From positions 1,626 to 65,625 of the forward strand of contig JBBRHV010000006.1 of assembly GCA_038222225.1 (NCBI GenBank): a stretch of DNA of 64,000 nt, in the 5' to 3' direction. This DNA is from Candidatus Omnitrophota bacterium. Lineage in GTDB: Bacteria; Omnitrophota; Gorgyraeia; Zapsychrales; JANLHA01. Shown here piece after piece: positions 3-45,000 of the stretch. Every line of letters begins with the position of its first letter. The stretch's first letter is position 1. A program made the position numbers and the translations under genes. Under the pieces are notes generated by a model that was not told the DNA's origin, searched no databases, and was given only the letters and a program-made list of their open reading frames with translations.

Positions 3-3000
3 TCTGATCAAAGGCCCAATTCTTCAGAGCCACTAGAAAACAATAAAGCGGTTGTTTCCAAGCTTCTGGCCGGGGTTGTGGTTCTGGTGAGCTTGGTATG
101 GCCGCTTGTTTTGTCCAAGGCCTTTGTATCAAAATATCTGGCGTTCACGCTTTGGGGCACATTGGGAGAAGGATATGTTTGGCAGCTCCTCACGTACAGT
201 TTTCTCCATACGAATCCTTTGCATTTGACCTTCAATGTGATCGCGTTTGTTTTCTTCGCGAATTTCATAGAGAGGGCAGTGGGGGTCAAAAGATTTTTGA
301 CTCTCTTTATCGGAGCAAGTGTTGCCGGAGCAGTCTTCCAGGTGCTGGCAATGGCCGCAAACAGTTTCACCTCGCCGGAATTAGCGGAGGCACTGGATAT
401 CACTCCTCTCATCGGACTCTCAGCAGTAGTAGCCGGGCTGATCGGAGCCTTCGGCGTTGTGCTGCGTGATCAGAAAGTGACATTCTTACTGTTGTTCATT
501 ATTCCGTTCCGCATCAAGGCGCAGCGGTTGGCGCAGATGTTGGTCACCGTCAGCATTGCGGCGATCATTTTCAATATAGTTCGCGGGGCCCAGGGCGGGA
601 TCGCCCACGGGGCGCACCTCGGCGGGCTTATTTTTGGTTGGGTTTATACGGAATATTTGCGGCGTGCAGGAAAGATCGATACGTTCATTATTGAAGAGGA
701 GAAACCCAAGGATCCTTCCGGAACCAACGCGGCGGTATTATCCAACTCAGATCCGGAAGGGGGAGTTGTTTCTTATCCGGCCCGTTCCAGCATCAGCGCT
801 GAAGAAAGGGAAGCAGCAAAACAGGGTACGGGCCCGGAAAATCTCAAGGGCTATGTCGTCAATTCACGGAAGATTCTGGGCGTTCCGGTTGAAGGTCTTG
901 AGATCAGTTATTCGGACCGCAGCGGACAAACAGTTGCTGAATATAAGCCGGGCCGTGTTGCCATTGATCTTTTGGGCCTTGGAGCCCGGGCGCCGCCGAT
1001 CGATCTCGAGCATTCTGCAAAATCCCGTCGCTTCCAGAGCATTATTCATGATGTTGTACGACAAATTATATTAGCTTCTCATTATTATGCCCTTTCAGAG
1101 AAAGATGTCCGTCAGGTTTCAGCCCGGCACTTTATCGGCCGGCAGCAAAAAGTTCAGAATTTTCTGGATCAGGAATTTAATCTTCGCGAATTCGGTCTGG
1201 TGTTTGATCCTGCCTATCTTGAGCTTTTAAGAAATTACCAGAGAATTGATCCTCAAATCGAAAGAATTAAAGAGCAGCTTGATCTCTTCAAGGGCGGGGC
1301 TGTGTCGTTTGAAGAGCTGTGTGAAGCTCTGGATGCGCGCGTTATTCTGAATGTGGCATCGCGTGCCTTATTTGAAGTGGGGAACAGTCCGTACCTGGTT
1401 AAAATTTACCGCGGCGGAACGCTGACGGCGAAGGCGTATGCCGCCGAAAAACAATTTTATAGAGAATATAACCCAACGGTCCAGCCGGAGCTGGTTTATT
1501 GTGATGACAATCTGCAGGCCTTGGTTGTGACGGATTTGAACCAGCTGGGATTGGTGCGCATGTTTGATTTTATTCAAGGGCCGTTCATTACGGAAGAATT
1601 GTTGGGTTGTTCGATTTCTTCCATGGCCCATGCCTTGGCGCAGCTGCATAGCAGCGCTGACGTGGCCTCGCAAACCGGTGAGCGGAAATTTGCTGAACTC
1701 AGGCATGAAGTGGACCGGGCGGTGGAGGTCTTAAGAGCGGCCGGGTTCCAAGGCCTTCCCGATGGAAAGAGCCTGGAGGATTTTCTTGCGCGATTCCAAG
1801 ATTCAGTAGTCGGAGAAAATGAACGATTGGTTCACGGCGATTATCTGATGTGGAATATTTTTGTTGACCCGGCAAGCGGAGAGGTGCGGGCCCTCATTGA
1901 CGGTGAGATGAGCGGTCTTGATTCTGCCGCTAAAGAGATGGCGAACACGATCCTGGGATTGATCGATGCCCGCAAGAATCATCCGTTCTTAATCAGTCAA
2001 ACTGCGGAGATGTTACGGTCGTTTTGGAGAGAATATATCCGGGAGACGAAAGACATTACCGGGCAGGAGATTTCTCCGGCGTTTGAGACTCGGGTCCATT
2101 TTTATTGCGCGGTCCAGTTGCTGATTGGCGCCAGAGTTGCGCATGAGAAATGGGCTAAATGGGCCCATTTCAGAATTGAGATGGCCAGGTTTTTCCTTAA
2201 TCAGGAAGCATTTTCATTGGAAGCTTTCATTGAGTTTTTGAATCATAATATTGGCAAACAACCGATCGGTTGGGTCGGGAATTTTGATGTTGCGACTCAG
2301 CACGGGCAGAGGCCGGGCTCGGGCGTTGAGATAATGATTGATGAAACAGGTTGGGCTGATTTCTTTGCCGAGGTTTGGGTTCCAGGAAACATCGGGGATC
2401 CGATTTTTGCATTGGGTATCGGAGCGGAATTACGTGTGACAAACAGAGACACCGGCGTTGTTTCGATTTGGAGGCCAGTGGAATTTTGTCATTTTGCGGG
2501 GAATAATTATCAATTTAGAGGAAGCGTGTTTTATCTCCAGGCGGGATCGTATGATGTGGAACCATCCTTCTCAGCGGATATGGGAGAAACGTGGTTTATT
2601 CCGCAACTCCCTTATGGCCCGTGTCATCTGACAGTGACAAAAGCATTGTCTGGGGAAGCGCCTTCAGAAAAGATAGTGAGTGTGGTCTTTTCTGACCTTC
2701 ACGGTGAGTTGAATGGTTTCCGTTCAGCGCTTGTAAAGCTCGGTATGATTTTACCGCAAAATAACCCGATGGAAGATATTTGGATTTCTCAAGATGTGAC
2801 GGTGGTTGTGGATGGAGATATCATGGATCGTGGTTTGCGACAGAAAGAGTTATACCACTATATCTGCCATCTCATGTTGACCGCCGAAGAAAGCCGTAAT
2901 CGGGTCATCTTTATCTTAGGAAATCATGAGCTGCTTCATCTTCAGGGGACTCCGGATGATTGGACAGCTCATGCGCTTACAGAAGTGATTAGAGAAGGTA

Positions 3001-6000
3001 TTCTTCGAGGAGATATTGTGGCAGCCGCGTATCTAGGTGGGCGTCTGATAGTTCATGCGGGAATTTTACCTTTTATTACCATGGATTTGATAAAGACATT
3101 ACGCCCAGGATTTTTGACTGTCGTTGCCCATCGGTCAGGAAAGTTCGTAAAGGATCTTACCGCGGTTGAAGTTGCCATCGAATTGAATAAAACACATAGC
3201 GTTCTTTCTGCTGACTCTATCGTGAATGAATTCAATCGGAGATTGCGGTTGGCGGTTGAGAAAGGCGATTATTCTGACGTTATTTTCCAGAGAGGGAACG
3301 CTCATTTTGGCGAGAACAAAAGGCCTGGAGAGTCGGGATATATACCCGGAGGCATATTCTGGGCAGACTATGAAAACGAATTGCGGCTGGTTGACCCGCG
3401 TGCGCTTATAGCGCAGATCGGAGGACATAGGGAGGGGAATGCGCTCCGTTGGACAAAGGGAGCCAGGGCTGTGAACGTCAATCTTTGTTATAAAGAGGGA
3501 TTTGGACGCAGCTCCGGAGTCGCTGTGTTTGATGGACAAAACTGGAAAGCTGTTTATTTTGATGGCCGGCCCATGCAAATTATTCCTGCTGTTATGGAGC
3601 GTGCTGTAAAACGACAGACAACAAATTCGGCAGCAGGTCAAGGCGGAACCAACGCGGCTGTTCTTGAGGGTGCGCCTTTTGAAGAACCGGAAACGGGTCG
3701 GATGAGCAGGCGAAGCATGCTGAAAATGCTGGCGCTGGCAGGAGCAAGCTTGCCGTTCATGACAACGACTGCTTTTGCTGATGAACCGACGGTTGATGAA
3801 GTTTTGACGGAACTTTTGAGCACTCAAACAGCGCATGGCCTCATTAAGAGTTTCAAGGGCACAACCGATACCTTCATGCAGAATCAGGCCGTGACCTATG
3901 ATCAGGCAGCCGCCGGGATCGCAGCTCTTGCGGCCGGAAGGACGGCGGAAGCGGTCAGGATTTTTAATTTCTTTTATAACCAGCATAATGGAGGAGATCC
4001 TGTCTGGAACGGGTTTGTGAATATGTATGATGCGACCCGCGGGGTCAAGGGCAACGAGCGCACGATCCACACAGGCCCGAACATCTGGATGGCGATGTTC
4101 AGCCTTCATCTTTATATGGCAAGCAGCGGTCAACAGGCCACGAAGGCCTTGACCCTTGCCAAAGCGCTCATGCAGTGGGCCAGGGGTTTGAATCATCGCG
4201 ATGGAGCGGTTGCCCTTGGACCGGTCCCCAATAATAATATTTTCTCAACAGAACATAACCTTGATTATTTCGCCTTCCTTAAAGGAATACAGTCGTTTTT
4301 GTCCGCGGCAGAAGCGGCGATCGTTCAAGCAGAAATGGACGGGGTTGGAACATGGTTAAAGACACATGCTTATGACCCGGCCAGAAGATTGTTCAAACGC
4401 GGAGCATATGAAAACCCGGTTGTCTATGCTACAGATACGTCAAGCTTTGCATTTTTATTGGGATCGCAGGTTCTGGAAGATTGGGGCATTGTTCGCTCAA
4501 CATTCATCGGCCAGTCCGATGCTGCCTATCGTGTCGGGACACGCGGTTTTGATGTGGCGAGTGTCGAGAACGCCAATTGGACCCCGCGTTCACGTTATGT
4601 CTTCAGAGAGTTTACTCTTCAGATGGCGGTAGGATTTTTGGTGATGGCTGATGATGAACACGATCGAGGCAATTTCACGCTGGAAAAAACGTATCGTGAT
4701 AAGGCTCAGCTCTATGCTTCTCAATCTGGCATAGATGGTGATTATCAATATTGTGAACAGACCGGGGTTCAGCTCTTTTATGATATTCCGAGCTGGAAAA
4801 CAATTAATGGTCAGTCGGCTTCGGTCATGGCCTGGAAGATATTTGCACTTCTCGGTTTCAACCCGTTTGGATTTGTTACAAAGGTGCGGCTGTCCGTCAG
4901 GCGTCTGGCGGCAACTGGAAATATGGAGTTGACTTTGCGCAAGGAAAGTATGGCGTCGCTCACTGCCGAGATTCTTTATTCAGATGACCTGGGAGATCAG
5001 AAAGAATGGAAGAGCGCCGGTTCAGTGGATTTGAGCGGCCTAAGGGCGGTTTGGGTCGATAACGGTTCTCAGACCACAACACATCCGTCGCAAAGCTCAA
5101 GGAGATTCTACCGAGTCTCGGCTGTAAATTCGTCTGTCCAGGGATTGGGCGCAGTCCATCAGGAGTCTAACGGTTTAGTGCCAGAGACGGTATTAATTGG
5201 GTCAAGCGCAGAGTATGGTCAAGAGTTCAAAGATGCGAATGCAGCAGTTTTGCAGGGGAAATTTGTTCAGACAGTGAAGACCAAAGGATCTGGGCTTAAT
5301 CGCTTTGACCTCGGGCGTTGGGGACGCGGGGCACTGCATTCAGTTCTTGCGCTAACACTGCTCACATCCGGTTGTGAGAAAAAAGAGGATACCCAGGGAG
5401 ATGCGTTGTCGGGAGTCGCGGTTCAGCCTGTTGATAGGAGCGCATTGGAGAACAGGATCAAGGAAGAGGTCCGGAAACTAGAGTATTCTGACAAGAACGC
5501 GGAGGATTTTGTAACGATGCTACGTCAATGGAAGAATGCTCAAGGCCAACCGGTTCTTACTGCGTGGGAGCAGAGCATTCTTAATGCCCGGAAACAATAT
5601 GAGCAGGGAGCCATGACAGCCGATCAGTTGGCCGGGATCGAAGCCGGGGTTGTTGGAGAAGTTGCGATGAGGATCGCTGAAGAATTTTCCGCGAATAATA
5701 ATGCTTTTGAATTGACCGATCTGATTGAAAAGAAACAGTCACAGTGTGTCAGCAGGTCAATGGCGGTAGCTATCGTCGGGAATGTACTTGGATTTAAGGT
5801 TGACTTTCTTGATGTTGATGCCAAGGAGATCAGGGCGATTGACGTTCCATTGGCGGAAAGAACTGTGGCGCATGCGGCCACCCTTGTACATTTGACCGGC
5901 GGGACCGTGATCATCGCCGATTCAGCGCTACGGTTTGTAAGCCGGCCGTTTTTAATGGAAGAAACCTACGCCGCAGTCGGGAACTATTGGGAACTTAAGA

Positions 6001-9000: not shown

Positions 9001-12000
9001 TCCATCCGGAAATTTGTTCGTTTAACGCCCTTGCTGAAGTTCAGCATCAATTTGGGGAGCTCACCACCATTGTTGTTGTTTATAGACGAGCCGCCGCTCT
9101 TCTTCAAAGGAAGCCGGTTTATGCCTCGCGTGAAAATGATATCATCATTCATTCCGACGGGATTATTTCTCAGGATCAGCTTATTTCGAAAATAAAAGGC
9201 CCTATCGCGCGCCTGTTGGTAACCGGCAATGAATTTGAAAGCTGTGTTGCCCGGGCTGTTTTTTCCATCAGAGAATTTATGCGGGATCAATATTCTGCCG
9301 GGTTTGTCTTGGATGTTCATTTTCCGATGGATTTGATCGTTGCCAATCGTCATGACTATCGCGATGGGGGATATCAAAAGATGATCGCGAATATAAAAGG
9401 CGGGGACTTTTTCTACAGCTATAAATTTCAAGCCCGTCGGATTGCCTATGACATCTATGATGGAACCGAACTGATCTGCCCTTGTGGGGAGGGAAGCGAA
9501 AATATTTCCAATCTTTATGTATGGCCATCTTTACAGAGCATGAAAGATGAATTAAGCCGAGGAACCGGCGGGACCAACGGGGCTGTTCTTGAATCAGGAG
9601 AGGGCGGCGCCTACAAGGAATTGATTTGTCGGTTTGACATGAAAGAAGATTATGAGGCGGATGATTGGAAGGAATCACGGGTTCTTAAGCGCGTGGCACT
9701 TATGAAACAGATCAGGTTGGGTTGGAAATATCCTCAGATGGGAGAACCGTCGGAACAATGGCTCAATGAGCTGAGAGAACTCGTTCTTCATCGTCTTTGG
9801 ACAAAGCTTCAAAAAGCACATCGTGGAGACATGTTTTTCCCTCAAGACATGGTTTCTCTCAATCGGTCGCTGAATCAGCCGTTTGTTTTTATCGTCGATG
9901 AACTTTTAAAGAACGCCCTTGATGCCCAGGCCTTGGCAGGGCAAAGCGGAAATGTCCATCTTGCGAGATCGTTGCAAGGCGGAACATTCGTGATGGCGGT
10001 TTCTGATAACGGAATCGGCGTCCGTCGCCCATTCTTAGGCTCAGAGCAGCTGGCTTGTATTGAGTCTTTGGCAGATCAGCAGAAGAGACGTAATACTCGT
10101 TTGGAAGCAAGTGATGGGGCTGGATTGATCTGGGTTCAGTATCTGGTCGCCATGCGGGGAGGTAAGCTTGAAGTCGAATCTCCCGGTCGCAATGAAGCCA
10201 GGACTACGGTTGTTGTGTCCTTGCCGGCGGATGCGTTAACGGTCATTGACAAGACGGGCTTAGGTTCTCAGACAAATGCTGCAGTCCTTCAAAAGAGAGA
10301 AGATGTCGCTACGCGGTTTATTTTTAGGTTAGCTGATCATTATGGTCTTTCTTCCACTTGTGATCCGCAGGAGATCCTTCAGGTTCTTCGTGCCAGGGGA
10401 ATCTTGAGTTCAGGGGAAGAAAGGGCGTTTGTCAGATATAGAAAAATTTTAAAACAGATGTATCCGGAGCTGAGCCTTGGGCAGGCTGAAGCACGCTGGA
10501 CGGAGGGCTACACATTTTTCGGGAATAATTCTTCTGAGGATTGGGAGCTTTCCGGACTGACGGAAGATTTTACGGTCATGGTTAAGAAACACATCGAAGG
10601 GATCCGGGCCGTTGAACACACCGATCATCCTGCGGATCAGGGCTGGTGGAAGGAAGATGGGCTGAAAATAAGAGTGATCCGGATTACGGATAGTCTTGAT
10701 TTAAAGGCGGCGTTACCGAACGAAAAAACAGAAAACCTGCCGCTGTCATCTGATGATGAAAACGGTTCACTGCACCTCTTTGAGTTTTTGTTCAAGAAGA
10801 TCTTTATTGAGCCAAAATATTTTGGCCTGGTAGCTTTCAAAGAAGGAAGGCCTGTTGGTGTATATGGGGTTTTTGTTTTAAATGATTGGAGAACGATCTC
10901 TGGGCGCGGATTATATGTCGTTCCATGGGAAAGGTATAAGAAAACAAATATCGGGTGGATGCTGGTCTCAAGGATGGCGGAATTGTTCGCGCTCAATGGC
11001 TATAAGTATCTTTATATCCCTGTGGCCAACCGTCCGTCGGCGCAGAAATTTTTTGAGAACGTGTCGGACAATACTGGACGCTTCCAGTTTTTCACAGAAA
11101 CAAAACGGAACGATGACGGAAAAATTCAAAAGGTTGCTGTGAAGCTGCAGGAAAGGTTCACTCCGGTTCAATGGGACATTGATCTTAAGCGTCAGATCGG
11201 CCAAGTCAACAGCGCGGTATTAAATACGAGCCTGTTGCAGCAGGTCCAAAATATGGAGGCAATGTTTAAAGCCTATGAATCGATTCTTAGTGACCATGGC
11301 CGACAGATACACGAGAGAGTTCGAGTGGTTTTAAGAGCAGCTTCTCAAGGCGTGATGAATGCAGAGCAGCAAAAAGAAGTTCGGGCGCTCGTGGCGTTGA
11401 TGCCTGATCCGCAGCATATTGATATTGAATCCGGCGGAGAAAAGAATTGGATCCGTTGGTTTGATTTAAGCCCGGAAAGACTGGGCGCATCTTTAGATCA
11501 AAGCATTGCCGATGGATGTGCGTGGCCGTGCCTGCATTGTGCGGCGTACAATGGCCATGCCAAAACAGTGATGGAGCCGCTTCCTGTTGTGATCGCAAAA
11601 ATTTTAAGCAGAACACAAACGGATATTATTTATCCATTCCAGTTCGATCTGATTTCTTGGCGGGATCTTTTCTTTGGAGTCGGCATTTCGGGATTAGCAG
11701 AGTTTATATCACGGTATAACCCGCAATATCAATTACGGTCATTGCCGACACGAGGTTGGGATAGCGATGATGCCTTTGTTCAGAACGAAGCCCTGCATCT
11801 TGCGCAGCTTAAAATCGCTAGTGGTATGTTCATTCTTTCATTCCATCTGTGCCATCAGCGGTATGACATCTTGCCGGCTATTGCGCAGGCGGTCAGGAAC
11901 GGAGACCGTGCAGAACTCGATGCACTGATCGATGTTTATGCAGCACGTTATGCGAATGTGATCGCTACGTTAAGTCCTGCGCTTGATCGGGTCAGCGTAT

Positions 12001-15000
12001 TTTTACCCGGAGATGTATACGCTCCCGTCTTTGAAGAGGCGACGATCCGGGCATTGAAAAAAGTGTTGAGCATCTTAAACGCTTCGCATGAAGAGATCAA
12101 GCCGCTTGTTGGTGAGATCAGTCATGGGGTCCTTGGGATCCGGGATATGAGATTTTTAAACATCGGCGGAAGGCAGATTTCGTTTATTTCTCGAACGATC
12201 CAACACGACGGCCGCGGGCGTGACTTTTTGGGACGATTGTGCATGGCTGAAAGCGGGGATTTGAACGGCAGGAAGGCGAATATGAATTTGCTTCGCATGG
12301 TCAAAGAACATGGCCGTCCGTATCCGGTTTCTGTCCTGTTTGCCTCTGGACGAACGATTGTCCAAACGCCGCAAGTCAACAGCGCGGTGCTTTTGACCGA
12401 ACCGCTGAGAAAAATGTTCCGCGCATTGAAACCGTGGCTGGTTATCGGCGCCGTTGCTGCCTGGGTGGGTTTTGAAAGAATGAATGCGAATCTCTTTTCT
12501 GGCCCTGAAGGGGGCGCGCATGAGAAATGGATCTTTCTCGACCTTGTTTTAGCCGCCGGTGTTATTGAAGAAATTCAATACAGGTTTGGCGTGTACAGGC
12601 ATGTCTTGAGGCCTTATTTCGGCGTTGTGCTGTCAGTCATCATCAGTTCTTTAGTTTTTGTGGCGGTCCATCTGATCTTTGCGGATGGGACCTTGATCGG
12701 TTTAATATATGTCCTGTTGTTTGGTGTAATTTCTGCCTTGATTTATGAAACCAGCGGCAAGCTGCGCTACGCTATTCTTCTGCACATGATCTCGAACTTG
12801 ATTTGGATCGGCATGAGCGCCGGTCCGTTTGCATATTTTATATTCACGGTCTCGCTTATGGCGCTGATGAAATTAAGCTTTGTTCTATTTATCTTCTATC
12901 ATACGGTCATCGCTGGCGTTAATGAGAGAGGAATCAAGGCCTTTGAACGTTTTGGAAAAACTGATTCGATTGATGAATGGTTAGGTCAAAAAGTTATCAG
13001 ACCGGCGGTGGCTGTGATTAAAAGCCGATGGGCAAAACTTGGCATGAATAAAATGTGGCGAGCAAAAAGCCCGGATGGAAAAGAACATCGCCGCATATAT
13101 GCTTTGGCATTCACAATCAGTGGATTGATCCTGACCTTGCAGTTTGCCGGAGACAGGATGTTCAGATTGTTCTATCCGGTCTCGCCAAGACCTTTGATCA
13201 CTCAAGAAGAGATGCGACAGAACATTCAGCGGGAGAGGGATAAGTTTGAAGCAGCAAAACGTGCCGCCCTCGCACAGACGCCAGGACTCACCACCAATGA
13301 TATTTTTGGTGTGATGTATTCTTACAAAGCGGATCTTTCATTGATCCGGGTTGTTTTATTCCATGACGGTCGCGCATACAGCGTGGAGGTGACATCGTCA
13401 GGTGAGACAATTGTCGATCCGGTAGCGTTATCATGCTACGAGGGCATTCTTACGCTGTTATTTTCCGACGGGCATATGGACAGACATCGTGAACTTCCTT
13501 TAAACGAACGGACTTGGAATGAAGTTGAAGCTTGGAAAAATAGATTGCCTCAAAAACCTGCACCTAAAGTACGGTCGAAACAGGGCGCGCAAAATTCATA
13601 TCATAAATTCAATACAGCGAGTTTGTACAAAGGGGTCAACAGCGCGGTGTTGTTGGGTTACTCGGATAAAGAAGCGTGGAACAAAGAGTCCGGGTTTTTG
13701 CTGGATACATTTTTTACATTTGAGCAGTATGTCGCGGCGGCTTTATATGATCCGGCCTGGGGATTTTATGGCAGTGGGAAGATCAAACTAGGGTTTGATT
13801 TCGGAACCATGCCGATCGCGCTGTCGCCGTTTTTCGGAGAGAAGGTCGCTGAGCGTGTGTACGAGATGTATATCGGCATGCTGAAAGCCGGTACCATCAG
13901 GCCGGATGAGCCGTTTTACATGATCGAGTTTGGGGCGGGAACCGGCGTGTTGGCAAGGGACGTACTGGCATTCTTTAGAGAACAAGCTAAACGCGGACGG
14001 GTTTATAAACGATTCTATGACAATTTGCATTATGTGATCAGCGACCGATCTAGCCCGCTGCTGGAAAAACAAAAGCAGAAGAATGCGGAGTTCTTGGAGG
14101 AAGGCAAGATCCAGTTTGTGATCGGCGATGCTCAAGAGCTTGAAACATTCTTGGAGAAAGAGCGTCCGATCAAGGGAGTTGTATTCTCCAATGAGCTTTT
14201 GGATGCCTTCCCGTCCCATAAAGTTTACATGGATGAACAGGGAGTGGCACATGCCATGGTCTCGATACCGGCTCTTGTCGATCAGCACAGTCCTGATCTC
14301 AGGCCTGGCAGCAGAGGCCGCCTATCGTCAACGATCAGCTTGTTGGCGCAAGTCGGAAAGGTGCTTAAGGCCCACGGGCTTTCGCTTGAAACATTAACTC
14401 AAAAAAGCCGTGAGTTCGCAGGGCGGTCGAATGTAGTCAAACAGATGGTGGATGATGGGGCCGTTGTTTTAAGTCGGGAGGATTTCTGCCGTATCCAGGA
14501 AATTTTCTCCGGTGAGAAAGTCAGTATGTATCGCGAGCTTATCCACAGGGTTATGGCGTTCTCTGAGATGACGGTTCCCGCGGCGCTGGTGCCCGGTTTA
14601 AAGGAATATTTAGATTTCCACAAAGATGAAATGAGGACGGCCCTTCAGGGAGAGTCAGGATGCGCAGTTGTCTCTTCCGGGTGGCTTTCGTTTGCAAAGC
14701 ATGTTTCCGGTTTGATCGATCAGGGATATGTCTTTACGATCGATTATGGAGAGACTACGGCGACATTGTTGAGCGCCAGGCGCAGAGAGAATTTTCCGAT
14801 TTCGATCTATCATCGACGTTTGGGAAGAGAGCGCAATCCTTATCTTCACCCTGGTGATGTGGACATATCGGTTGCGCCGGATTTCACGGTCTTTGCCCAG
14901 GCGGGGCTTGTTCATGGCTTGGTTCCGGTTTATCACGGGGAGCTCCGGTTCTTGCAGGCAGATTCAACCGAAAGGATTGACTCCGCGCAAACCGCTTCAC

Positions 15001-21000: not shown

Positions 21001-24000
21001 CGACAAGCGCCAGTGTTCTAAATGGAGAAAGCCAGGAAAGTGCGGACTTTGGCGAGGATCAAGATTTATCTCAGATTCTGTTGATGGCCCAAAGGGACCT
21101 CCGGTCTGGGAACCTTTCGCGGTTTGCCGGGATCAATGCTGAAAATCATAAAGAGCGATTATCAGGATTTATTTCTGAGAGCATTCTTCAGAATGAGCGT
21201 TTTGCGCAGGTCATCGGCCTCTTGTCATTTATTTCTGATAATCAGGCTAGGTCTGCTTATGGCTATTCGCCGATTTGTGAACATATGAGTCAGGCGGTTG
21301 CGGTTGAGACGGCAATAAAAGAATTCCAGGTATTAGGCTTGGCGGGCTGGAAGGTCGATTCGAGAGTTTTGACCGGTGTCAAGGATTGGTGGCCCATCGG
21401 TTCTCATCATTCAGCCGCGATCGTTGTGATCGGGGATATTCGTTTCTTTGTCGATATGACATTTCCTGTTCTCATCGAAAGCAATTCAGATTATGCGGAT
21501 TTAAGCAAGCCTCATGGGCTTGTGATGATCCCTGAACAAGTTTTGATCGAACATCCTTCGTTCCTTCAGCTTTATCAGACAGGGATCGCCAGATCCATGG
21601 ATTGCGGATTTTCTGAAATCAAGGGCGTCCAAAGGGAGGATTTAAAATTGACCATGCGGCTCCTTTCTTTAGACGAATTTTCTGATGTGATCGAAACTAT
21701 TCCCGATGATTTTGTCGCTGAACGCTACTCCAAAGAAGAGAGAGCTGCTTTACCAGCCCAAATTGAGAGCCAGGCACTCAAGATCTATTGTTTCTATCTT
21801 CCTCGGGCGGTTTCTCAGGGAGTCCTGGCAAAAGGAGTCGGCATGGTTTTTGTCCGCCAGGAGGGAACGGGCCGTCGCGAGATCGATTTCTTTTTCTTGC
21901 GATGCAGCCTCACTTATATGGGATTTGGGCCGGAAATGATTAGGCGCGTTTTGAGAGAACTTCGCAAAGGAACATCAGGCGTGAAGGAAGTTGGAATAAG
22001 CTCCGGGTTCTTGAAGATGCTTCCGGAAGACAACGGGTCTTCAAAACGGGCAAGGCTTTCGAGAAAGTTCTTTTGCTATCTGGGATTTGAAGGTGATCCG
22101 TTGACGTTGCGTTTGCAAACTTCCGAGGAAAAAAACAAGGTCCCCTCCGCAGCGACAAATGCTTCGGTCATTTTGGATGGAAAAACCTTGAGCGAACAGA
22201 AACCGCTAACGGTTGAAGAATCGTGGCAGCTATTCGCCAGAAAGTTGGAGAAGGGGGCGCGTACGAATAGTCATTCTGGATTGGAAGACAATCCGGTCAT
22301 GTCGCATTTTAACGAGACGAAAAAAAGGAACGCGAATAATTCCTTTGAAACAAATGCGTCCATTCTTCTGGAATGGAGATTGAGGAAAATCATGCAGCCG
22401 TTTTTTGAAGGCGGATATTACGTCGAGAAGCAGGGGGATTCACGTCATGAAATGTTTCTGCGCGTGTGCCATCCGGAGCCAGAGAGACAGGGCGTGTTTC
22501 GTGGTGAAGACAAGACCCGCGCTTTCTGGGTTCAAGCGAGGGAAGATGAGTTTGAGGTCAACTGGGTCTTTCCGGATCTTCCGCCTGGCAAAGGTCTGGG
22601 GCGTGCTTTCATGGCCAGTGCACTTTTATTGCAGGATGGTTTTTGTGGAGGAAAGAAAAAGTTTATTATTGAAGACACAAAAATCTGGTTGTGCCGCAGC
22701 TTCAGAAAGCTTCCCGGATTCGGGATTTTTTATTGGGCGAAAACGTTTCAGTTTGTTGCGTTGCTGTTTTGGTTGGCGGGCCGCCGGGATGTTCTGAAAT
22801 ACAGGCTGACCGGGCGCGTACCCGAGGTTTCAGCGAAATTTAAAGCCTGGCTGCATGAAAGAAATGAACACAACAAGGGCAAGGCTGTAGGGACAGAGCT
22901 TCGAACGACCAATGCCGCGGTGTTGGGCCGTTGGGTGCATGCGTTCGAAGAGGGGTGGGGGCGTGCGGCGAAAACAACCTTGAGCAGGGTTGCTGATGAA
23001 TCGCTTGCATGGAAAAGAAAAATTAATGAGTGGGTCTCTTGGCTGAAAATTTGCCTGCACGTGACGGACCGCAGTGATCGAGTGGTTGCGGCACAGCAAC
23101 AGGATATCCAGATTATTGGAAACAATTTCGGTACGGAGCAACACCCAGCCCGCGTCGGATCGGTAGTTCATATGTCCAGTTCGCATGAACAGGACCCGGG
23201 ACTACCGGTCTGGCGCACATATTTCGAAGGAAAACTCAGCGGCGGGGTAAACGCGGCTGTGCTTGTCCCTGATCGCATGGGCAAGACGTCGGCGGACTAT
23301 TTTGATGAACTTGTCGCGCAGTTTAATGATCAAAACAATGAAGTTTGGCAGAGATTTCGTGCTTCTGTTGAAGCGAACCCCGATCAGTACGATTCAGTTT
23401 GGTTGAAAGTTTTGAAGCAGGCGCGTGCATTAGAGGTTGAAACACAGAAGCAGGTTCAAGAACCCGTGAAGATATTTTTATCGCTGGATTCCGTCTTGAT
23501 CGTTCCTGAAGATGGAAGCATGACCGGTCCTTTATTGCCGTTGGCGCCGGATTCGGAAGCAACGCATCATTTGCCTGCCCTGCCTGTGGTGCCGGAAGCA
23601 ATTCTTTTATTCATTTTCGTTTTGAGCCGCAAAAGACAAGGCCGCGGGGGGAAAGGCAGGGAGTACAGTTTAGCTGCATTCGTTGAGAGCATGCAGAGCC
23701 GATGGAAGGCCGTGAAACGTGCTGGTTTTACGGGCAAAGATTTCTTTGGAAAACGCCATGTCTATAATCTCACGTTGCGGTCTTCGTGTCGGAATTTTGC
23801 GTCAACAGGGTTGAGTGATCCGTCCGTAAAGTTTGCAGGAGAAAGTAACGCATCAGTTCTGAAGGATGCAAAGAATCGTGAGAAGCGTGACAGTTTCAGA
23901 AGTGGACGGCGGTCTCTTTCTGTCGTGTTCACCGTTCTTGGAGTTGCGATCGTTTTGTTTATCGCGCAGACAGCTTTGGCAGGATTGGAAAGGGCGGCCT

Positions 24001-30000: not shown

Positions 30001-33000
30001 AAAAAAGGAAGAACCGGATCCATTTGCGTCCGGCCAGTAGAATTGTTTATGTTGCGAAGTACATCTGGGATCAATTGAACATTCGTATGATCGTTGAAAA
30101 GGAAGGAGATCAACAACAGGTGGATGCCCGAAGTATCAACGGCCTTGCACGTCTGGCAATCTTTGACGGGGAAAAAATTTCAATTCGAACAGAGGGCTTG
30201 GCAGATAGGCAGATCAAAGGCAAAGCGGTTGAACTTTTTGCTAGGATTTTGAGAGACCCGGGGGTTCTTCAGCACAAAACGATTTGGGACATTTTTTATT
30301 TCTTTGATGAAGGGCGGGGGATAGATCAATTGTCCTTGCGTAAATATAAGCGTGCGGTTGATTTGATCAAGCTGGATGCGGCGGAGTCGGACCGACCTGA
30401 TAGGGCGCAAGTCAATTCCTCAGTTCTATTCGGAGCATCTCTGGCGCAGATCGATGCCTCTATCGTTGGTGATGTGGTCGGAATGATCATGTTTGCTTTG
30501 GGGTCGGCGGTTACCTGCATTGCGGCCCTGTTGATATGGCTGGTTAGAACACAGCGGTTCCGTATTCATGGGTTCTGGGTTAGGAGCTATACACCGGAGG
30601 AGATGAAAATTCGCCGGAGCGTTCATGCGCGGATGATCGATTTTTGCATCGGAAGCAAGCATTCTCAGAGAATGGCAGCTCAACGCATGGCGGGCCGTTT
30701 TACGCATTCGGCACGCAAATCATACAGATATCTTGTTGATATCTATGGAAGAGAAAAAAGCAAAACGGAATTTTTAAAATTTTTGAGAGAAACAGAAAAG
30801 GATCGACTGGTTACTTTTTTAGTTTTCTTAGAAAAGAAGAAGATGCGGTTGATCGTCGCTCCGCGATTTGTGGAAGGCGGAAAAGAATTCCGTCATCTGG
30901 ACATGCAGCATGGGTTCGCTTTGGAGGGCGTTCTAAAAAATTATGTTTACGGATATTTTGAAGGGATTGACCCAACGGACGATCAAGGAAAGATCGTGCT
31001 GATGTATTTGGCGGGGGAGGAGGGGTTCAAACAGCTACAAGAGTTGGCATTTTTATTTATTACAGGCGGAATATCCATAGTGAAGCCAGTCGAGCTCTTT
31101 ATGGATTCGGGAACGATAGGTGAGATCAAGACTGTGCGTGATCTTTTGCGTGTTGAGTATTTCTATCAGATAAAAAAGCAGAAGCAAAAAGAGGCGTTAG
31201 AAAAACGCATTGCCGAGGATAGGGCCGCGCAAGACGGGACCAACGCGGCGGTTTTAGAGAACGGCACAGCGGATCATGAACAGGACGGTGGCGAAACAAA
31301 TGCCGCGGTGCTGGATTCCGAAAACGAAAGCAAAGGGGAATTTTTGGCCGGGACCCAGCAGGGGATTCGGCTTGGGCTTTTGACACTTGAGGAGGCGCGT
31401 CTTTGGGAGAGGGCGGCAAAGATTGTTGATGCTCCTGTCGGCATGGAGATAGAATTCAGTCATCCGGAAATTGCGACATTAGGTGATGATGAGTATGATC
31501 TTCCCTATTATATTAGCGAACATTATTCGGATCCTCATTTGGAATTTAATCTTGAGCCATCTTGGAATCTTGGCATTCAAAGATATTTGGTAAGGCATAT
31601 TTACCGCAGTATGGGGTTGTCTGAGGATGATGTGATCTCGGTCCAGTTAAACTGCGGTATCCGCAAGAAAGATTATGAGGGGCTTTCTCAAGCTTCCCGC
31701 GGATTATTTTTATCTATGGCGCATTATTTAATGCTTGCGGTTACGATCGTTTATGCATCAAATCAAAGGATCTTATCAAAGAAATCAGAAAAGGTGGCCG
31801 AAAAACGGGATTGCGCTGAACCGCTTGATGGAGAACCCTACATTCGGATCGAATACGGTTTTCTTGATACGATCGATGAGGGGTGGCTGGTTCTCTGGAT
31901 CTTGCATCAGGTTATTTGGAAAACTGCAAGGTTCAGCGACGATCAAAAAATTTCCGGCAAACTCATTCGTGAAGAGGAGCAGTTGCTAATCAAGATCGGG
32001 CAGGACATGGTTATTCAATTGCATGAACGTCTTCCAGGTATTAGAGGATTAAGTGCGAATGATATATTTGACCTGTCGGATGCTCGGACGTGGTTTAGGT
32101 TGGTTCCGTGGCGCCAGGAAAATCCTGCTACGGTGAAGGCCATTGACAATCTTCTCCAGAAAACTGTGCTTCAAGTTTTGTCCACTTTAGGAGGGTCAAA
32201 CCATACGCCAGAGAAGGAAGTGCCGGTTTGGATTTTACCGGCTGGAAATCGGGAGACATTTTTAAGATGGTTTGGTAATCGGGAGCAGGCGATTGCTCAT
32301 ATTCCTGAGCCTACAGGTGGACAGGACGAGGTAAGGGATGGCGGAGTTAATTCTGCCGTTTTGGATCAGAGAAACATTGTTGGTGTTGAAGTGCACTGTC
32401 CGGCAGGATCAGGATATTGGCTGAGAGATATTCTTTATGAAGGGATCCCGGTTCAAGGCGGGCTGGTGATCCGGTATTATGATCAGTCGCGGTGGTCGTC
32501 AGGAATTGCAGGGATACGGACGGTTCGCAGTGATCATGGATTTTTTACAGAAGTGGATATGTTAAGAATATTAAATGGAGAGGTCCCGACAGACATTTTC
32601 TACGTGGGGGCTTTTCATTTGGGATGTGTTCGGCATGCGTTTGAAAGCGCGCTTCAAATTCAAAAGACAGGCCTGTGGAACGGGTCTCAAGCAAATCATC
32701 ATTTCATTTCAAACCGCATTGCCTGTGATTGTGATGATTTCGATATTCGTGTCAGTGATGCTTTGCCGAGGCTGAATCTGAGGACTGCAACGCCGTTTGC
32801 CTGGCGCAGAAATTGGAGTGTCAAAGCAGCGGTTATTCGGGGAGATGAGGTTGTAAGTAACACACGATTTATCGATCAGCTTCAAGCGAGGCTTTATTAT
32901 TGGAACGATGTGCCGGAATTTAAGGAATGGATAAGCCGTGGGATTCAGCAGACAAACGCAGCGGTTTTGAACCAGAGAATGTTTGAGATCGTGGATACAC

Positions 33001-39000: not shown

Positions 39001-42000
39001 TGGCGTTCGCGGAAGATCTTGTTGCCCTCATGCCGGATCCTGAACACTTTGATGAAACGGGTGAGTGGATGACGTGGTTTAAGCCTCATGCATTTAATGG
39101 GAAATTCACCCTTGAAGCATGGGGTCTCGGGCAGGAGTTCATCGATCGGTTGAACAAGGTGCGCGGGGCAGACACGAGCAAAATCAACAGCGTCGGGGTT
39201 AATTCGTCTATTTTTGGTCATTTATTCGGGGCAAAGAAAGAAGCGGCAGACATTGATTCTACGGAGGTCAGACAGGAGATAACAGAGTGTGATTTTGATC
39301 AGGCCGTGCGCGGAGTTCGACGCCTGGTTAATGAAACGCCGACAAATGAAATTGCAAAAGTTCTTTACGGCCTGCTTCAGTATGAGGAGGACTATTTGTA
39401 TTATCAGATTGTTCGTTATGAGGCTGCCAAGAGAATAGCCAAGGCATCGGTGGAGGAATATGAAGATCTGAAACAGTTGATCAGCACATTGCGGATGCTC
39501 GGGAAGATGATTGAAGATCGCCAAAAATTGTTTGAGGAAACAGGGGAAACGAACGTTGACTTTTATTTATTAGCCCTTCGACAGTCTCGACAGAAGTTAG
39601 CAAGATTATTCCGTTTTCATATTCGGGGGTATGAGAATCTTGACCGGGTCGTTCAACGGTTGGACAGCGACACGGTGGAGTATTTATTTTCGTTCTTCAG
39701 CAGGGCATCAGTTCAAGAATTCACCAGCTTAGATGAGCTCATGCAGATCATGACATTTGTCCGGCGGCGCACTTCTTTGGTGGATGAAGATCTGTTGGCG
39801 CGCGCCAAAGAAAGCCTTGAACGGATCATGGTGGAATGGGTTTGTGAAGTCGGCGGAGAAAAGGATCCTGATCTAAGGAGCCAAGAAGTCAGGAATATTC
39901 TAGAATACATTACACAGCATGATCGGACATTCCGTCAGAAATTGAAAGAAGGCATCAAGAGGGCCATTGGTTTCTTAGCCCGTCAAATCAGAAAGAGTCA
40001 AGATGACGCAAGGGAGGCGCAAAACTTGGCAGATAAGAAGGCCGTTGAAGGACGGCAAAACACACTGATTGATTTAAGCGTGAGTTATTCGGCGCTGATG
40101 ACAGCAGTGGATGATGAGTCAGGAGACGGAAATCTTGATGGAAACAATTTATGGGAAAGCCAAGACAGCCAACAGACAGATAAAAAATCAAACAATGATT
40201 TGGGTGCAAATGCTTCTGTATTGATGGGAAGAGAAAATTACAGGCATCTTAAAAAAAGATTTGATGATACAAACGCGGCGCTATTGATTGGAAGAAGTGA
40301 CAGGTCACAGACAAACAAGGAAATAAGGGCGAAGAGGCTCATTCAGGGGTCGATTTTAAATGCGTTTCTCTTTTGTCTTCCTGCTTTGGTCATTGCGGTG
40401 ATCGCTGTTGTGACTTGGGGGCCAAGCTGGAAGATATTTGTGGCGGTCTGGGTTATTCTGGCGTTAACACGGTTTGCAATGTCCATGCGCCATATTCCCG
40501 ATATTTGGAGAACATTGCAGGGCTTAGGTACGCCAACGAAGGGCGGCATCATTGAATTGGCTAAGGCCACTAAGACCAAGATGGAAAGGAAAGCTGTGGC
40601 GCGTGAGCAAGCCCGCAAGAAAGCGATTCATCAGGCCAAGGCTGCTATGGGCAGGGTTTCTCCCAAGAGTTATGCCATACAAGAGGAGTATAGCACCGAG
40701 GTGGGCCGAAAGATCCCGGCGGAACTTAGAAACGACGAAGAAATTGTTGAGCAATATGAAAAATTGACAGCCCGTGCGGAAGAATTTTTTGCGCGCAAAG
40801 TACGTTCACAAAAACCGAAAGAGACTGCGCCGCAGCATATTCCTGAGGTGGCACCAATACCGATAGAGCCTGTCCAAAGACAGGAAGCGCCTGAGGCGCG
40901 CGAAATGGCCAGAAAACGGTTCATTCGTCGACAGCTGGCTGAGGCGCGCCGTTATATTGAAAAGCTGGACAGCCGCGGGTTTATGAGCGCGCATGAGTTT
41001 TTGAACGCCGCCGAAACGTTTAAACCGGAGTGCGTTAAAACATATCCGGATGATGCTCAGGTGAAGGATTTTCTGACGTGGTTTGATTGTGCAGTTCAGG
41101 CTGTGGCACAACAGGTCGCGGATAATGTTCGGCGCATGGAATTTGAGGAGCGCAAAAAGGAACTGCTGGCATCATGGCGAATGATGGTTGAGAAATTGGA
41201 AAGAGCCCGGCAACGGCTGGATCAGGCTATGGCGGCAAGGATTTCCAAAGACCGCGCTTCGTTGGCAGAGTTGCAGAGAAGGATGGATCAACAGGTCGCG
41301 GATAATGTTCGGCGTATGGAATTTGAGGAGTGCAAAAAGGAACTGCTGGCATCATGGCGAATGATGGCTGAGAGATTGGAAAGAGTTCGGCAGCGGCTGG
41401 ATCAGGCTATGGCGGCAAGGATTTCCAAAGACCGCTCTGCGTTAAGTGAGTTGCAGGTAAGGATGGATCATCTGGCAGCGACCATAGAACAGCTTCGTCA
41501 GGCAAAAGATGTTTTGCGCGCGTTGACTTTGCCATCCGCGACCGCCGGTGAGGATGATTTGCGATCCGCGATTTTACAGGTGCTTCCCGTTGAAGTCAGA
41601 GAAGACCCGCGCTTGGCGCTTTTTATCGAACAGGCCAGGTTGCGGTTGTATGAACACGCTGTGACGCGGGTTTTGGATATTTTGTCTCAGTCTTCAGTTG
41701 ACCCCAGAACTTTTGATGACAGCGAGGCCTTCCGCCAGGCATGGATTGCGAAAGTGCCGGTATGGATGCAGGAGGATCAACGTATCATTGCAGCCCTTGA
41801 AGAGCGTATTGATCAAGGCCTTTTGGTAATAACCGAACAGGAGAAAAAGTCTGCTCAAGTTAAAAGGGAACAGGCATTAGAAAAAAGAGCGACTATTGGG
41901 GAACTTTATACCGCCTTAGGAAAAAATGATTTTGGAACGGCACTGACGAAAGCCTTTAAGTTGCGCACATTGGTTGCTGATATGCCGGTAGAGGATTGGT

Positions 42001-45000
42001 TGGAATTTCTTGAGATGTTTGTTGTGCAGGCAGCTCAGAGAATCGAACAATTACGTCGGGAAAAAAGGCATAAAGAGGCCGAACATGCCATCCAAGGAAT
42101 GCGTAGGCTTTTGGACAAGACCCCGCTGGCGGAAACTTTCAAGCAAATGCTAGGAGACATTGACCGCCGTTTGCAAGAAACACAACATAGAACGCCGGTT
42201 TCCGAGCGTATCCAAGAAGGAGCAAATGGCAATGAAACAAATTCTGCTATCGCGCATGGGACTGACAATGCAGATAATACGGGCAATGTACCGGATGAGG
42301 TAGGAGCAAGGCTTAGTGCTGAGGTCTGGCTGGATGTGGCGCATTTGGATGCGGAGGCGGTCAATGGGGTTTTGAGATTTAAGGGGAACGATGGCTCTGG
42401 ATTGACGTCTTTGACTTTGACAGACCTTCCGGTGAGTGCCGCTCTGGATCAATTATGGTTTTTGTGGTTTAAATGGAAGAATGACAGAGAAGCATTTTAT
42501 CGTGATTGGCTTTCTCATCTCCGAAACATTCCTTTATCGTTTTCTCACTTAAAACAAGAAGACAATTTAAAACAAGCTGTGCTCAGTAAAGGGCGCATGG
42601 CTTTTGCGATTCATGTGGCTGCCAATATGCGTTCTGACCGTTGTTTGTACGAACGATTAGAGGCAGCCGCGAGATCAGGAGCGCATACGGTGCTTGTCGT
42701 TTCCGGCGGAGGCCTTTATCAGAAAATTTTACGAAGAGTACCGTTTGGACGGTATGTGTTCCGTGATGGATCTTTGAAATTGATTCACATGTGGGCCAGT
42801 TTGTCGCGTGAGGGAAAGGTCCCTCCGGGTGTGAGGATCGCCGTTGCGCTTAATTCGAATTATATCGGCTCGAAGGCAAAGCGCGAAGCGGTTCGTTTGG
42901 TAAAGAAAGTGAAGTTGGCTCAAGAATTGGGCATTCCGCTTTCTCAGATCGAAATTCATACCATGGCTCCTTTGACCGGGTTTGAGTGGGTTGACGGTAT
43001 CGGGCTTTGGAACTTGCGCCATGTGGATGCGATCGCGTTTTTCAGGGACATCTTATTACCAGTTTTAGCAAAAAATGGAATTGGTACTAAAGAGTTAACC
43101 GTTCGTTTTGGTGTGGCCCATGTGATGAATGCAACAAACTATGCATTTTGGGTGTATTTGGCTGGCCGATCCGTCGATGAAAAGAGTGCGGGCCGGGCGT
43201 ATGACACTTGGCGAAAGCATTCACGTGCTGATCAACTGGCAAAAGCATGGTGGAGAGTTCAGTATGAAGTCAATAAGCGGATTCAGGAGCAGGCGTCTTT
43301 TGGTCACGTCGCATTGATCTTTCAGCCGGCGGCAAAGAAGGCGGGGGATGCGGTTATCCGTTGCGCGTCTTTTGTGCAAAGTGTGAATAGCGCGGTTTTA
43401 AAGACAGCAAGACAAAACGGGCTTATCAGCGATTCAATCATTATTCAGGAATTAGGTTTTATGCGCAGGATGTTTACGGCCTATGAGGGAATATTAAGTG
43501 AACAAGGCCGCAGAGCCATACAGAATATCAGTGAATTCATGAGTAGTCTTCAAAGAGGCTCGGCGGGGGATGATGTTCGCCGGAAAGCCGTCGAGTGGAT
43601 CTATAAAATGCCGGAACCGTTGCAGTTGAATATGGAAGACGAATGGCTGACGTGGTTTGATCACAAGAAAATCCAGTTGTTCCCTTATGGTTTAGGGGGC
43701 GGGTGCACGGAGCCTTGCTTGCATTGTTTTTGGGGGAATCCTGTTCCAGTGGCGAATCTAAATCCTCTTCCTGCCGTATTTCTCGGCGCGAAAAACAGCA
43801 AACGAGAAGTTCTTACGTGCGGACATTTTGATGATCTGGAATGGTATGACCCCTTATTCGGAATTGGGCTAGACAGCATTGTGAAGTATTATTTGAATTC
43901 AAATCCACGGCAAAGGTTAAGTCTTTTGACTCGCGGTTGGGAAAAAGAACATGCAAGAAAACAACAGGTTGTTGAGAACATTGTTCGTATTGTATCCGGC
44001 GCTGATTATAACTTTGAATTTGGAGTTTCCTTTAATCTTGCTCAGTCTGGAAAATATGATCTCGCTAAGGCGATTCAAAGTGGAAGGCTGGAGTCTGTTT
44101 TAGAACTGTATGCTCAGCGTCATCAACACATTTTAAGGACGCTTCGAGGCTTGTCGAAGATCCGATACGTGGTTCGTCCGCTTCTGCAGGAGCGGGAGTT
44201 GGATCATCCCACAGAGAAATTGCTTGGCATGGTCTTGCGCAAAGCTGAGGTTGCGGCTGCGGACGTGAGAAGGGCGGAGGCGACCGTCATTGGAAGCAAT
44301 AGAAACAGCCGAATCCCCTGGGGCCCAGGAACGCTCACGATCGAATGTGATCAATGCATCAATGAGACCGGTTCCGGCGGTGAGTTTATTCGAAGCATTG
44401 ACTCGGCGATTCGCGGAGAAGATTTTGTGCGAAGTTCCTACGGGCACATATATAGAGAAGGCATGCCGTGCGCTCAAATACACGGTGCTACAAATGAGAT
44501 CGTTGTTGTTCTTCCCAGCGGAAAGCGGGTGATGCGAGGACCGATAAGCGATTTTCCGATGAGGACGGTAAGGCAAAAGGGCGCTGCTCAAGGTGGCAAC
44601 TCTGCAATTTTAGCTGAGAAATTCAGTGATTGCGTTGATATCGATTTTGAGAGGATGTTACAAGACCGGAAAAAGAAGTTCTCCTCCAGTTGGCCGCATC
44701 TTGATTTTACAAATCGCATTTTGATTCCGTTTCCTCTGCCAATGTTGCGGGTGTACGGAAAAGAACCATTTCATGACGAAGATATTCAGCGCGTTATTTA
44801 TGAGCTTTTAACCAATGCTCACGATGAGGCGCCGGCCGGGCTGATCAGAGTGAATTTTGAATTGGGAAGCATTGATTCGCAGAACGGCCTAAGTCTTTTT
44901 ACGATCCAGATCGAAAATGAGCGCACCGGAGAGATCCCGTTTGATCAGATGTTTCGGTTCCTGTTGGGACAGGCAATCACCGGGAATCTGTGGCGTAATA

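Follow-up and report, generated by a model that had tools for sequence, protein, structure and literature searches.

The stretch of DNA analyzed here, hereafter the window, comprises 64,000 nucleotides (nt) of contig JBBRHV010000006.1 from a Candidatus Omnitrophota bacterium (assembly GCA_038222225.1; positions 1,626 to 65,625 of the forward strand), and is dominated by a single giant open reading frame (ORF) on the + strand. In frame 3 the first stop is met at 56891, so that the frame reads through from base 3 over at least 18,962 codons and encodes a chain of about 53 modules separated by a short recurring peptide, referred to below as the junction. The ORF crosses the left edge of the window, its true start lies outside, and all counts given here refer to the visible part; the features described are all on the + strand and their coordinates are those of the window. 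A first-pass annotation had considered it conceivable that this chain carries its own processing enzymes, naming a rhomboid serine protease, a CPBP/CAAX-type metalloprotease and an HExxH motif among the candidates. What these enzymes are, and whether any of them would cut the junctions, is the subject of the present analysis.

The modules have a mean length of about 360 amino acids (aa), and none of the Pfam domains extends across a junction into a second module. Since only a few internal segments resemble one another (just five segment pairs at E < 1e-4), the giant ORF is not a repeat protein. Its Pfam and NCBIfam content comprises a rhomboid, an APH kinase, a metallophosphatase, TPR, a Ser/Thr kinase, two HATPase_c domains, a CPBP/Rce1-like protease, Methyltransf_28, GNATs, HPr, a pyridoxal phosphate (PLP) enzyme, an alanine dehydrogenase, HTH, SEC-C and a methyltransferase. 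About 48 hydrophobic segments are found along the ORF, and the neighbours of the junctions are often cytoplasmic enzymes or regulators, namely the kinases, S-adenosylmethionine (SAM) methyltransferases, GNATs, alanine dehydrogenase, PLP enzyme, HPr and HTH proteins. The flanking aldolase-type (HMGL-like) protein clusters at ≥90% identity with Candidatus Omnitrophota proteins.

The ORF has the features by which the giant genes of Omnitrophota (Archaeovorin-type) are recognized: a length above 20 kb (here at least 56.9 kb), many transmembrane (TM) segments and a mixture of divergent enzyme domains. It also shares with the published examples a low number of such domains and a poor conservation among relatives (10.1101/2023.11.21.568195; PMC10066038). 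In these publications the product is viewed as a single large surface-associated protein; C39 or S8 peptidases are described near the N-terminus of the full-length genes, embedded peptidases are proposed to cut the proteins into pieces by self-cleavage, and the cleavage points are stated as not known. The ORF differs from them in that the visible modules of peptidase type are a rhomboid and a CPBP protease instead of N-terminal C39 or S8 peptidases, and in that an explicit recurring junction is present. Rhomboids are not mentioned by West-Roberts et al. (2023; 10.1101/2023.11.21.568195).

The junction has the consensus [T/V/A/I/S]-N-[S/A]-[S/A]-V-L and is set in polar, linker-like flanks on both sides. 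Its core, N[SA][SA]VL, occurs in 33 exact copies, while 0.12–0.14 copies are expected and two at most were obtained in 300 shuffles; the junctions to which the earlier reading refers are therefore real. A position-weight scan added about 20 degenerate versions, such as NGAVL, NSAVV, SAAVL and NSAIL. The position ahead of the Asn is occupied by T, V, A, I or S without exception among the 33. A recurring and specific junction peptide between functional units is a feature that the chain shares with self-processing polyproteins of the viral type. The first visible junction, T-NAAVL (723–740, with the Asn at nt 726), is located about 20 aa past the last TM helix of the rhomboid module, on the side predicted to be cytoplasmic by the positive-inside rule. 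A search for the junction peptide strings in a limited collection of papers returned nothing relevant.

The codons of the junction vary synonymously, both AGC and TCN being used for Ser and both TTR and CTN for Leu, and therefore selection acts on the peptide and not on the DNA or RNA. A role of the junction at the RNA level was discarded on the basis of these freely varying codons and of the lack of Rfam matches. Conservation as a peptide would also suit a separation of the modules during translation that needs no protease, in which the nascent junction causes peptide-bond skipping in the manner of the 2A elements of eukaryotic viruses, and the Pfam, NCBIfam and module-level Pfam scans of the visible ORF revealed no conserved protease. 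However, the conserved core is just 5–7 residues long and the sequence upstream of it is variable, whereas the known 2A elements require some 18 residues and are not known to work on bacterial ribosomes. The presence in related chains of Trypsin_2 proteases flanked by junctions also argues against skipping, and this explanation is considered very improbable.

Two other explanations for the junctions were rejected. Internal initiation at each module was discarded because a Shine-Dalgarno-like sequence precedes only one of 17 first post-junction Met codons, compared with 10.7% of all Met codons, and such initiation would also leave termination unaccounted for. A C39 double-glycine site does not fit either, as Gly is found at position -2 in just 11 of the 33 junctions and the conserved residues are downstream.

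Some junctions have an unusual location. Two perfect copies (TNAAVL) lie only 19 aa apart at 31242–31313, separated by an acidic Gly-rich spacer (ENGTADHEQDGGE), and would represent either an empty module or a duplicated junction. The terminal module (aa 18690–18962; 56070–56888) has an internal paralogue (aa 7637–7948; 22911–23846) with about 45% identity. This paralogue carries the junction GGVNAAVL (aa 7750) as a 6-aa insertion, at a point where the terminal copy and its counterpart in an orthologous chain are continuous ('YFEGKL--SMAEADRMGK'). Junctions can thus apparently arise inside a conserved unit.

The first module (3–725) is a rhomboid intramembrane serine protease with six TM helices, as indicated by Pfam, its homologues, its AlphaFold2 model and Foldseek, and so the rhomboid annotated earlier at 57–740 was confirmed. 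The match to PF01694 covers aa 57–220 (171–662) and profile positions 2–141 of 143, with an E value of 2.8e-22 and 79.9 bits against a cutoff of 22.6. The motifs of the family are intact. They comprise HLTFN in TM2 (222–236), an HxxxN whose H74 and N78 are the oxyanion-hole residues, GLSAV in TM4 (414–428), a GxSx with the catalytic Ser140 (420–422), and AHLGG in TM6 (612–626), with the catalytic His205 (615–617) followed by the GxxxG packing motif. In an alignment of 38 rhomboid sequences H69, H74, N78, G138, S140, G207 and G208 were invariant, and H205 was present in more than 90% of the sequences.

The AlphaFold2 model built with this alignment reached a predicted local distance difference test (pLDDT) score of 80.9 and a predicted TM-score (pTM) of 0.79, and its fold was also that of a rhomboid: the top 34 PDB matches in Foldseek were all GlpG, with probability 1.00 and a target-normalised TM-score of 0.56–0.69. 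Module 1 shares with GlpG of E. coli and H. influenzae and with other bacterial rhomboids the six-TM fold, the HxxxN and GxSx motifs, the TM6 His and the topology. By contrast, it is fused in a giant ORF, has a junction 20 aa past TM6 and lacks the C-terminal DUF6576 that is present in its free-standing homologues. The closest of these homologues are free-standing proteins of about 287 aa and 34–38% identity, and the few with a named source are from Verrucomicrobia/Verrucomicrobiota. No close relatives of modules 1 and 2 were found in the GTDB representative genomes. Considering the positive-inside rule, the AlphaFold2 model and the established structures of GlpG, the loop charges of module 1 fit the GlpG topology, with both termini in the cytoplasm, and Ser140 would face the periplasm.

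The rhomboid could be the processing protease if it read [T/V/I/A]-N-[S/A]-[A/S]|V-L as its recognition motif. Its catalytic apparatus and fold are intact, and rhomboids are reported to cleave short motif-bearing peptides (PMC4253528 and PMC5746060). The recognition motif of rhomboids has a large and hydrophobic P4, a small P1 and a hydrophobic P2' (Strisovsky et al., 2009; PMC2941825), and with the cut placed as above the junction has a small P1 and a Leu at P2' in 33 of 33 copies. However, P4 is V or I in only 13 of the 33, being T, A or S in the other 20, and a rule of small residues at positions -3 and -1 fits the junction at least as well, with 33 of 33 at both positions. The location of the junctions is a greater obstacle: most of them flank cytoplasmic modules, while the active site would open to the periplasm. 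The distance to the nearest hydrophobic segment is 30 aa or less in only six of the 33 junctions and more than 60 aa in 22, and half of them are more than 160 aa away; six junctions have a hydrophobic segment within 40 aa downstream, which corresponds to N-terminal TM segments. The small-residue rule at -3/-1 is that of proteases with a Ser/Lys dyad, for instance signal peptidase I and the VP4 protease of birnaviruses. Moreover, the nearest homologues of module 1 are ordinary free-standing rhomboids, and a rhomboid was found neither in the 16 fragments of related chains, which total about 45,000 aa, nor in a further metagenomic locus, L002. The proposal that the rhomboid cuts the junctions is thus extremely improbable. 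The first-pass annotation had itself warned that the junctions would need to reach the membrane. This is indeed the main problem, and it is worse for the rhomboid than was stated there and milder for the CPBP enzyme.

Module 10 (12378–13637) was identified by Pfam and by a local hidden Markov model (HMM) as a CPBP/Rce1-like (type II CAAX) intramembrane protease, in agreement with the CPBP/CAAX-type enzyme placed before at 12393–~12900. It starts with the junction NSAVL and carries a C-terminal extension of about 250 aa. PF02517 matched at aa 4176–4267 (12528–12803) with an E value of 3.7e-12 and 46.8 bits against a cutoff of 22.4, and the local CPBP HMM matched the module with an E value of 1.6e-38. 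The three motifs of the family are intact. Motif 1 (EExxxR) is EEIQYR (12567–12584), with E64, E65 and R69 invariant in an alignment of 20 sequences; motif 2 (FxxxH) is FVAVH (12657–12671), with H98 invariant and F94 in more than 90% of the sequences; and motif 3 (HxxxN) is HMISN (12783–12797), with H136 invariant and N140 also in more than 90%. By the positive-inside rule, the EExxxR motif would be located where its TM helix reaches the cytoplasm. Together, the motifs and matches of modules 1 and 10 indicate that the rhomboid and the CPBP protein are genuine intramembrane proteases and probably catalytically competent.

The EExxxR, FxxxH and HxxxN motifs are common to Rce1/CPBP proteins, including the '-CTERM' sorting proteases MrtS and MrtJ. 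Module 10 gave weak matches to the NCBIfam equivalogs of MrtS (27.6 vs 130 bits) and MrtJ (26.8 vs 75 bits), and a weak match to rhombosortase, the enzyme of the GlyGly-CTERM system, was also obtained (31.4 vs 84 bits); all three are below their cutoffs. MrtS, MrtJ and rhombosortase show that both families found here can act as dedicated processors of a short signature peptide. The similarity does not extend further, as the matches are of 27–31 bits against cutoffs of 75–130 and the known signatures adjoin a C-terminal TM helix, while most of the junctions do not and have no C-terminal TM sorting domain behind them.

The HExxH motif highlighted earlier, HEWTH, is present at 48189–48203, but has no family, homologue or fold support. 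It belongs to module 44 (46962–48893; aa 15654–16297), an orphan soluble module of 644 aa without TM segments, for which the family and homologue searches were empty: no Pfam or NCBIfam match, no homologue and no PDB sequence match were found. Its single-sequence AlphaFold2 prediction had a pLDDT of just 37. HEWTH is thus regarded as a motif and not as a demonstrated protease domain, given the lack of Pfam, homologue and PDB support. A second HExxH, HEKAH (47895–47909), is found in the same module, with a His located 14 residues past the second His of the motif. Three HExxH motifs occur in the ORF against about 0.7 expected by chance (P(≥3) = 0.04), and one of them is in the metallophosphatase module. 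The context of HEWTH, 'FGRKDL..P.MMFGTCAHEWTH', resembles 'FGRRML..PRLVFGTMAHEIAH' in the related chain P0065 in a weak BLASTP match (29 bits, E 7e-4, in a database of eight sequences), and the HExxH-x13-H spacing of HEKAH is also present in chains P0046 (aa 427) and P0064 (aa 796), in this case at the level of the motif only.

The active sites of the CPBP enzyme and of module 44 would both be accessible from the cytoplasm, and either of them could process the junctions on the inner side of the membrane, acting in cis or in trans. All four catalytic motif residues of the CPBP module are intact, its EExxxR would be at the cytoplasmic end of a helix as in Rce1, and Rce1 trims soluble cytosolic proteins at the membrane surface; NCBIfam assigns CPBP relatives (MrtS, MrtJ) to the sorting-signal proteases, the matches here being the weak ones given above. 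Module 44 has no TM segments, and the contexts of its HExxH motifs are weakly similar to sites in three other chains. On the other hand, CPBP was detected among the related fragments only in P0100, which had itself been retrieved through its CPBP domain, and no CPBP protease is known to cut long soluble polypeptides at internal sites. Module 44 adds to its lack of family, homologue and fold support an enrichment in HExxH that is just marginal, and the visible tail of the orthologous chain keeps the junction without either module. It is therefore improbable that either of the two is the cutter. Both are more plausible than the rhomboid in this role, but they are long shots, and it is quite unlikely that any of the three named enzymes is the protease in question.

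The same annotation had listed three Cys-His-Asp candidates of the papain/transglutaminase type, which correspond to modules 4, 12 and 18. These have no family support at the sequence level, as no peptidase family was found by module-level Pfam at E ≤ 1 in ten unannotated modules including these three. With jackhmmer, modules 4, 12 and 18 showed no similarity to one another or to the related chains at the sequence level. In the visible ORF, neither a chymotrypsin-like module (GxSGxP motif and local HMM) nor a MARTX-type cysteine protease domain (Pfam and NCBIfam) was detected.

Several modules look like complete precursors. In module 3, a twin-arginine translocation (Tat) signal (SRRSMLK...AFA; SRRSMLKMLALAGASLPFMTTTAFA; 3651–3800) starts 12 aa past the junction at aa 1217. 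Module 4 has a lipoprotein-type signal (…ALTLLTSGC; 5238–5400) after the junction at aa 1746, followed by TPR repeats, and resembles the TPR lipoproteins NlpI, PilW and Tgl. An internal Tat signal would not be able to work in an uncut chain, and the basic n-region of module 4 would then be on the wrong side of the membrane. Since modules with their own Tat or lipoprotein signals coexist with cofactor-dependent cytoplasmic enzymes and DNA-binding proteins, any cutting would take place in the cytoplasm, before export.

Nevertheless, the chain might not be cut at all. It would then function as a single multi-enzyme protein of giant size, anchored in the membrane. In that case the rhomboid and the CPBP enzyme would act on other substrates, and the junction would be a linker, a docking site or a modification motif, for example the target of the radical-SAM-like modules. 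The view in the literature of a single surface-associated 'coat' protein and the roughly 48 hydrophobic segments are in line with this, as are the recurrence of a radical-SAM-like CxxxCxxC module both here and in every relative retrieved with it, and the junction at aa 7750, a mere 6-aa insertion in the otherwise continuous conserved sequence of paralogous modules. By contrast, the internal Tat and lipoprotein signals would be useless and the positive-inside rule would be violated. A sigma-70 factor, HTH regulators and metabolic enzymes are present among the modules of the related chains, and a linker would need neither so strict a sequence nor a wholesale change between lineages combined with uniformity within each chain. 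An uncut chain is thus considered unlikely.

Additionally, modules 8–10 were used in an exhaustive HMMER search, and homologues of module 9 were found inside long heterogeneous proteins of 1,300–4,959 aa. These related chains are fragments of up to 5,000 aa, the longest match being 4,959 aa. Module 9, of about 390 aa, is radical-SAM-like and has no Pfam match, but its CxxxCxxC ('GCAWPCLHC') is invariant. The ORF contains copies of it at 11208–12377 and 43386–44597 and a partial one at 38808–~39100, each of which starts directly after a junction. No other module is common to the ORF and the roughly 16 long chain-like proteins from other lineages, and module 9 may thus be characteristic of these chains, although it also occurs as a free-standing protein of about 400 aa. 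Other domains of the related chains are the sigma-70 factor, PfkB, histidine phosphatase, DnaJ, HTH regulators and methyltransferases. A metagenome scan with the alignment of the radical-SAM-like module yielded one extra locus, L002 (Ga0315289_10000815), with no clear junction motif. It has two giant frames, of 3,836 and 3,328 codons, each of them running off one end of the locus; they overlap by about 270 nt (11245–11512) in different frames, which could be due to a frameshift, a sequencing error or two adjacent genes.

At least five of the related chains carry their own recurring short motif at a protein-sized spacing. Junction-like motifs were R[TA]SP[VM] in P0057 (eight copies), R[RK]SPSG in P0054 (four copies) and [ST][AS]SP[VIAL] in P0065 (nine copies), and A[AV]P[AV]GR was present in six copies in P0052 and three in P0047. 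The chains may therefore form a class of ORFs in which each lineage has a junction motif of its own. Since the motifs differ between lineages, a dedicated protease that co-evolves with them is favoured over a universal housekeeping one. Several of the lineage motifs contain Arg, and two carriers of Trypsin_2-like modules among the relatives use Arg-containing motifs. Modules of the Trypsin_2 type are located near the chain start in three relatives, P0051 and P0057 as identified by Pfam, and P0053 by its motif and the local HMM only. In P0057 the Trypsin_2 module is the first one past the N-terminal anchor and has an RTSPM junction on both sides.

Synteny led to an orthologue of the giant ORF. 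Among the syntenic loci (L003–L008), the locus L004 (1–9875; JAKLFA010000005.1, GCA_022711395.1) carries a giant gene that is truncated by the end of the contig and has at least 33,383 aa, and a flanking protein of this relative belongs to the 90%-identity cluster of its counterpart in the window. N[SA][SA]VL is found at about six sites in the last 3,290 aa of the orthologue. In this tail, homology to the window is limited to the terminal module, of about 300 aa (57% identity); a homologue search with the terminal module had found none. As nearly all of the modules in the tail of the orthologue differ and the junction is nevertheless kept, the modules turn over fast. No Pfam match to a peptidase, rhomboid or CPBP was obtained in the tail of the orthologue (visible 3,290–6,501 aa, the last 6,501 aa being on another contig).

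Taking all these data into account, we lean, by a small degree, towards an interpretation in which the rhomboid and the CPBP protease are cargo among about 53 unrelated modules, and the cutter is encoded either in the N-terminal part of the ORF, which the window does not include, or at another place in the genome. In this scheme the N[SA][SA]VL-type junction would most likely be the recognition site of a sequence-specific endopeptidase, acting in the cytoplasm during or soon after translation and freeing the modules, some of which would then use their own Tat, lipoprotein or TM signals. The endopeptidase would probably be none of the three named enzymes, and the comparative data would point to a soluble protease near the N-terminus of the chain that co-evolves with the junction. 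The general proposal of a processing enzyme carried by the chain itself is thus maintained, by analogy with the Trypsin_2 modules of the relatives and the published C39 and S8 peptidases, but the candidates named for it were not: the rhomboid has a periplasmic active site, few junctions close to a hydrophobic segment and no counterpart in the related fragments, CPBP is restricted among these fragments to the one found through it, and HEWTH lacks the support of a domain.

Several points weigh against this interpretation. The start of the ORF is outside the window and the upstream protease is a proposal; likewise, we infer, and do not observe, that any Omnitrophota giant protein is processed. 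The absence of the rhomboid and CPBP from the relatives is weak evidence, because these are fragments of up to 5,000 aa. If cut at [A/S]|V, the junction fits the rhomboid motif in part, with its invariably small P1 and Leu at P2' and a poor fit at P4. The EExxxR motif of the CPBP module, predicted at the cytoplasmic face, would keep this enzyme compatible with the role as far as topology is concerned. Finally, as a rough estimate from the general frequencies of genes, two intramembrane proteases in about 53 modules slightly exceed the number to be expected if bacterial genes were drawn at random.

If an intramembrane module of the chain cut the lineage-specific junction on the inner side of the membrane and so freed at least 50 unrelated proteins, the ORF would be a true cellular polyprotein. 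This is distinctly improbable, with CPBP as the more plausible candidate than the rhomboid on account of topology. If true, it would represent a use without precedent for that class of enzymes, a physiological role not yet described for these protease families and the first processing system to be defined in giant bacterial ORFs. The literature leaves open whether the giant ORFs of Omnitrophota, of up to about 86,000 codons, give a single protein or pieces, and the window makes this question directly testable, as it provides a concrete junction peptide together with a few embedded enzymes whose catalytic residues can be identified.

The organization proposed here was compared with other large proteins that are processed. 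MARTX is a large multi-effector protein whose modules are freed by an internal protease, a soluble InsP6-activated cysteine protease which cuts after Leu in the linkers between effectors, in the host cell. The chain would be like MARTX in being a large multi-module protein with an internal protease that frees the modules, and differs from it in that the MARTX-type cysteine domain was not detected. Viral polyproteins (with 3C-like, papain-like or birnavirus VP4 proteases; PMC13067793) also consist of one long ORF with a short conserved junction peptide between units, and the chymotrypsin-fold protease flanked by junctions in the related chains is a further similarity. By contrast, the giant ORF is a bacterial chromosomal gene with at least 50 unrelated enzymes of cellular type, its visible proteases are intramembrane and not of the viral cis-cleaving type, and its cleavage is putative.

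Moreover, two minor features of the ORF were observed. The GC skew over 1–56891 is 0.14–0.23, strongly and uniformly positive on the coding strand of the ORF. Module 38 holds a tandem duplication of about 50 aa (~41070–41400; aa ~13690–13800), coiled-coil-like in appearance, with the pattern 'QQVADNVRRMEFEE[RC]KKELLASWRMM.E[KR]LER.RQRLDQAMAARISKDR'.

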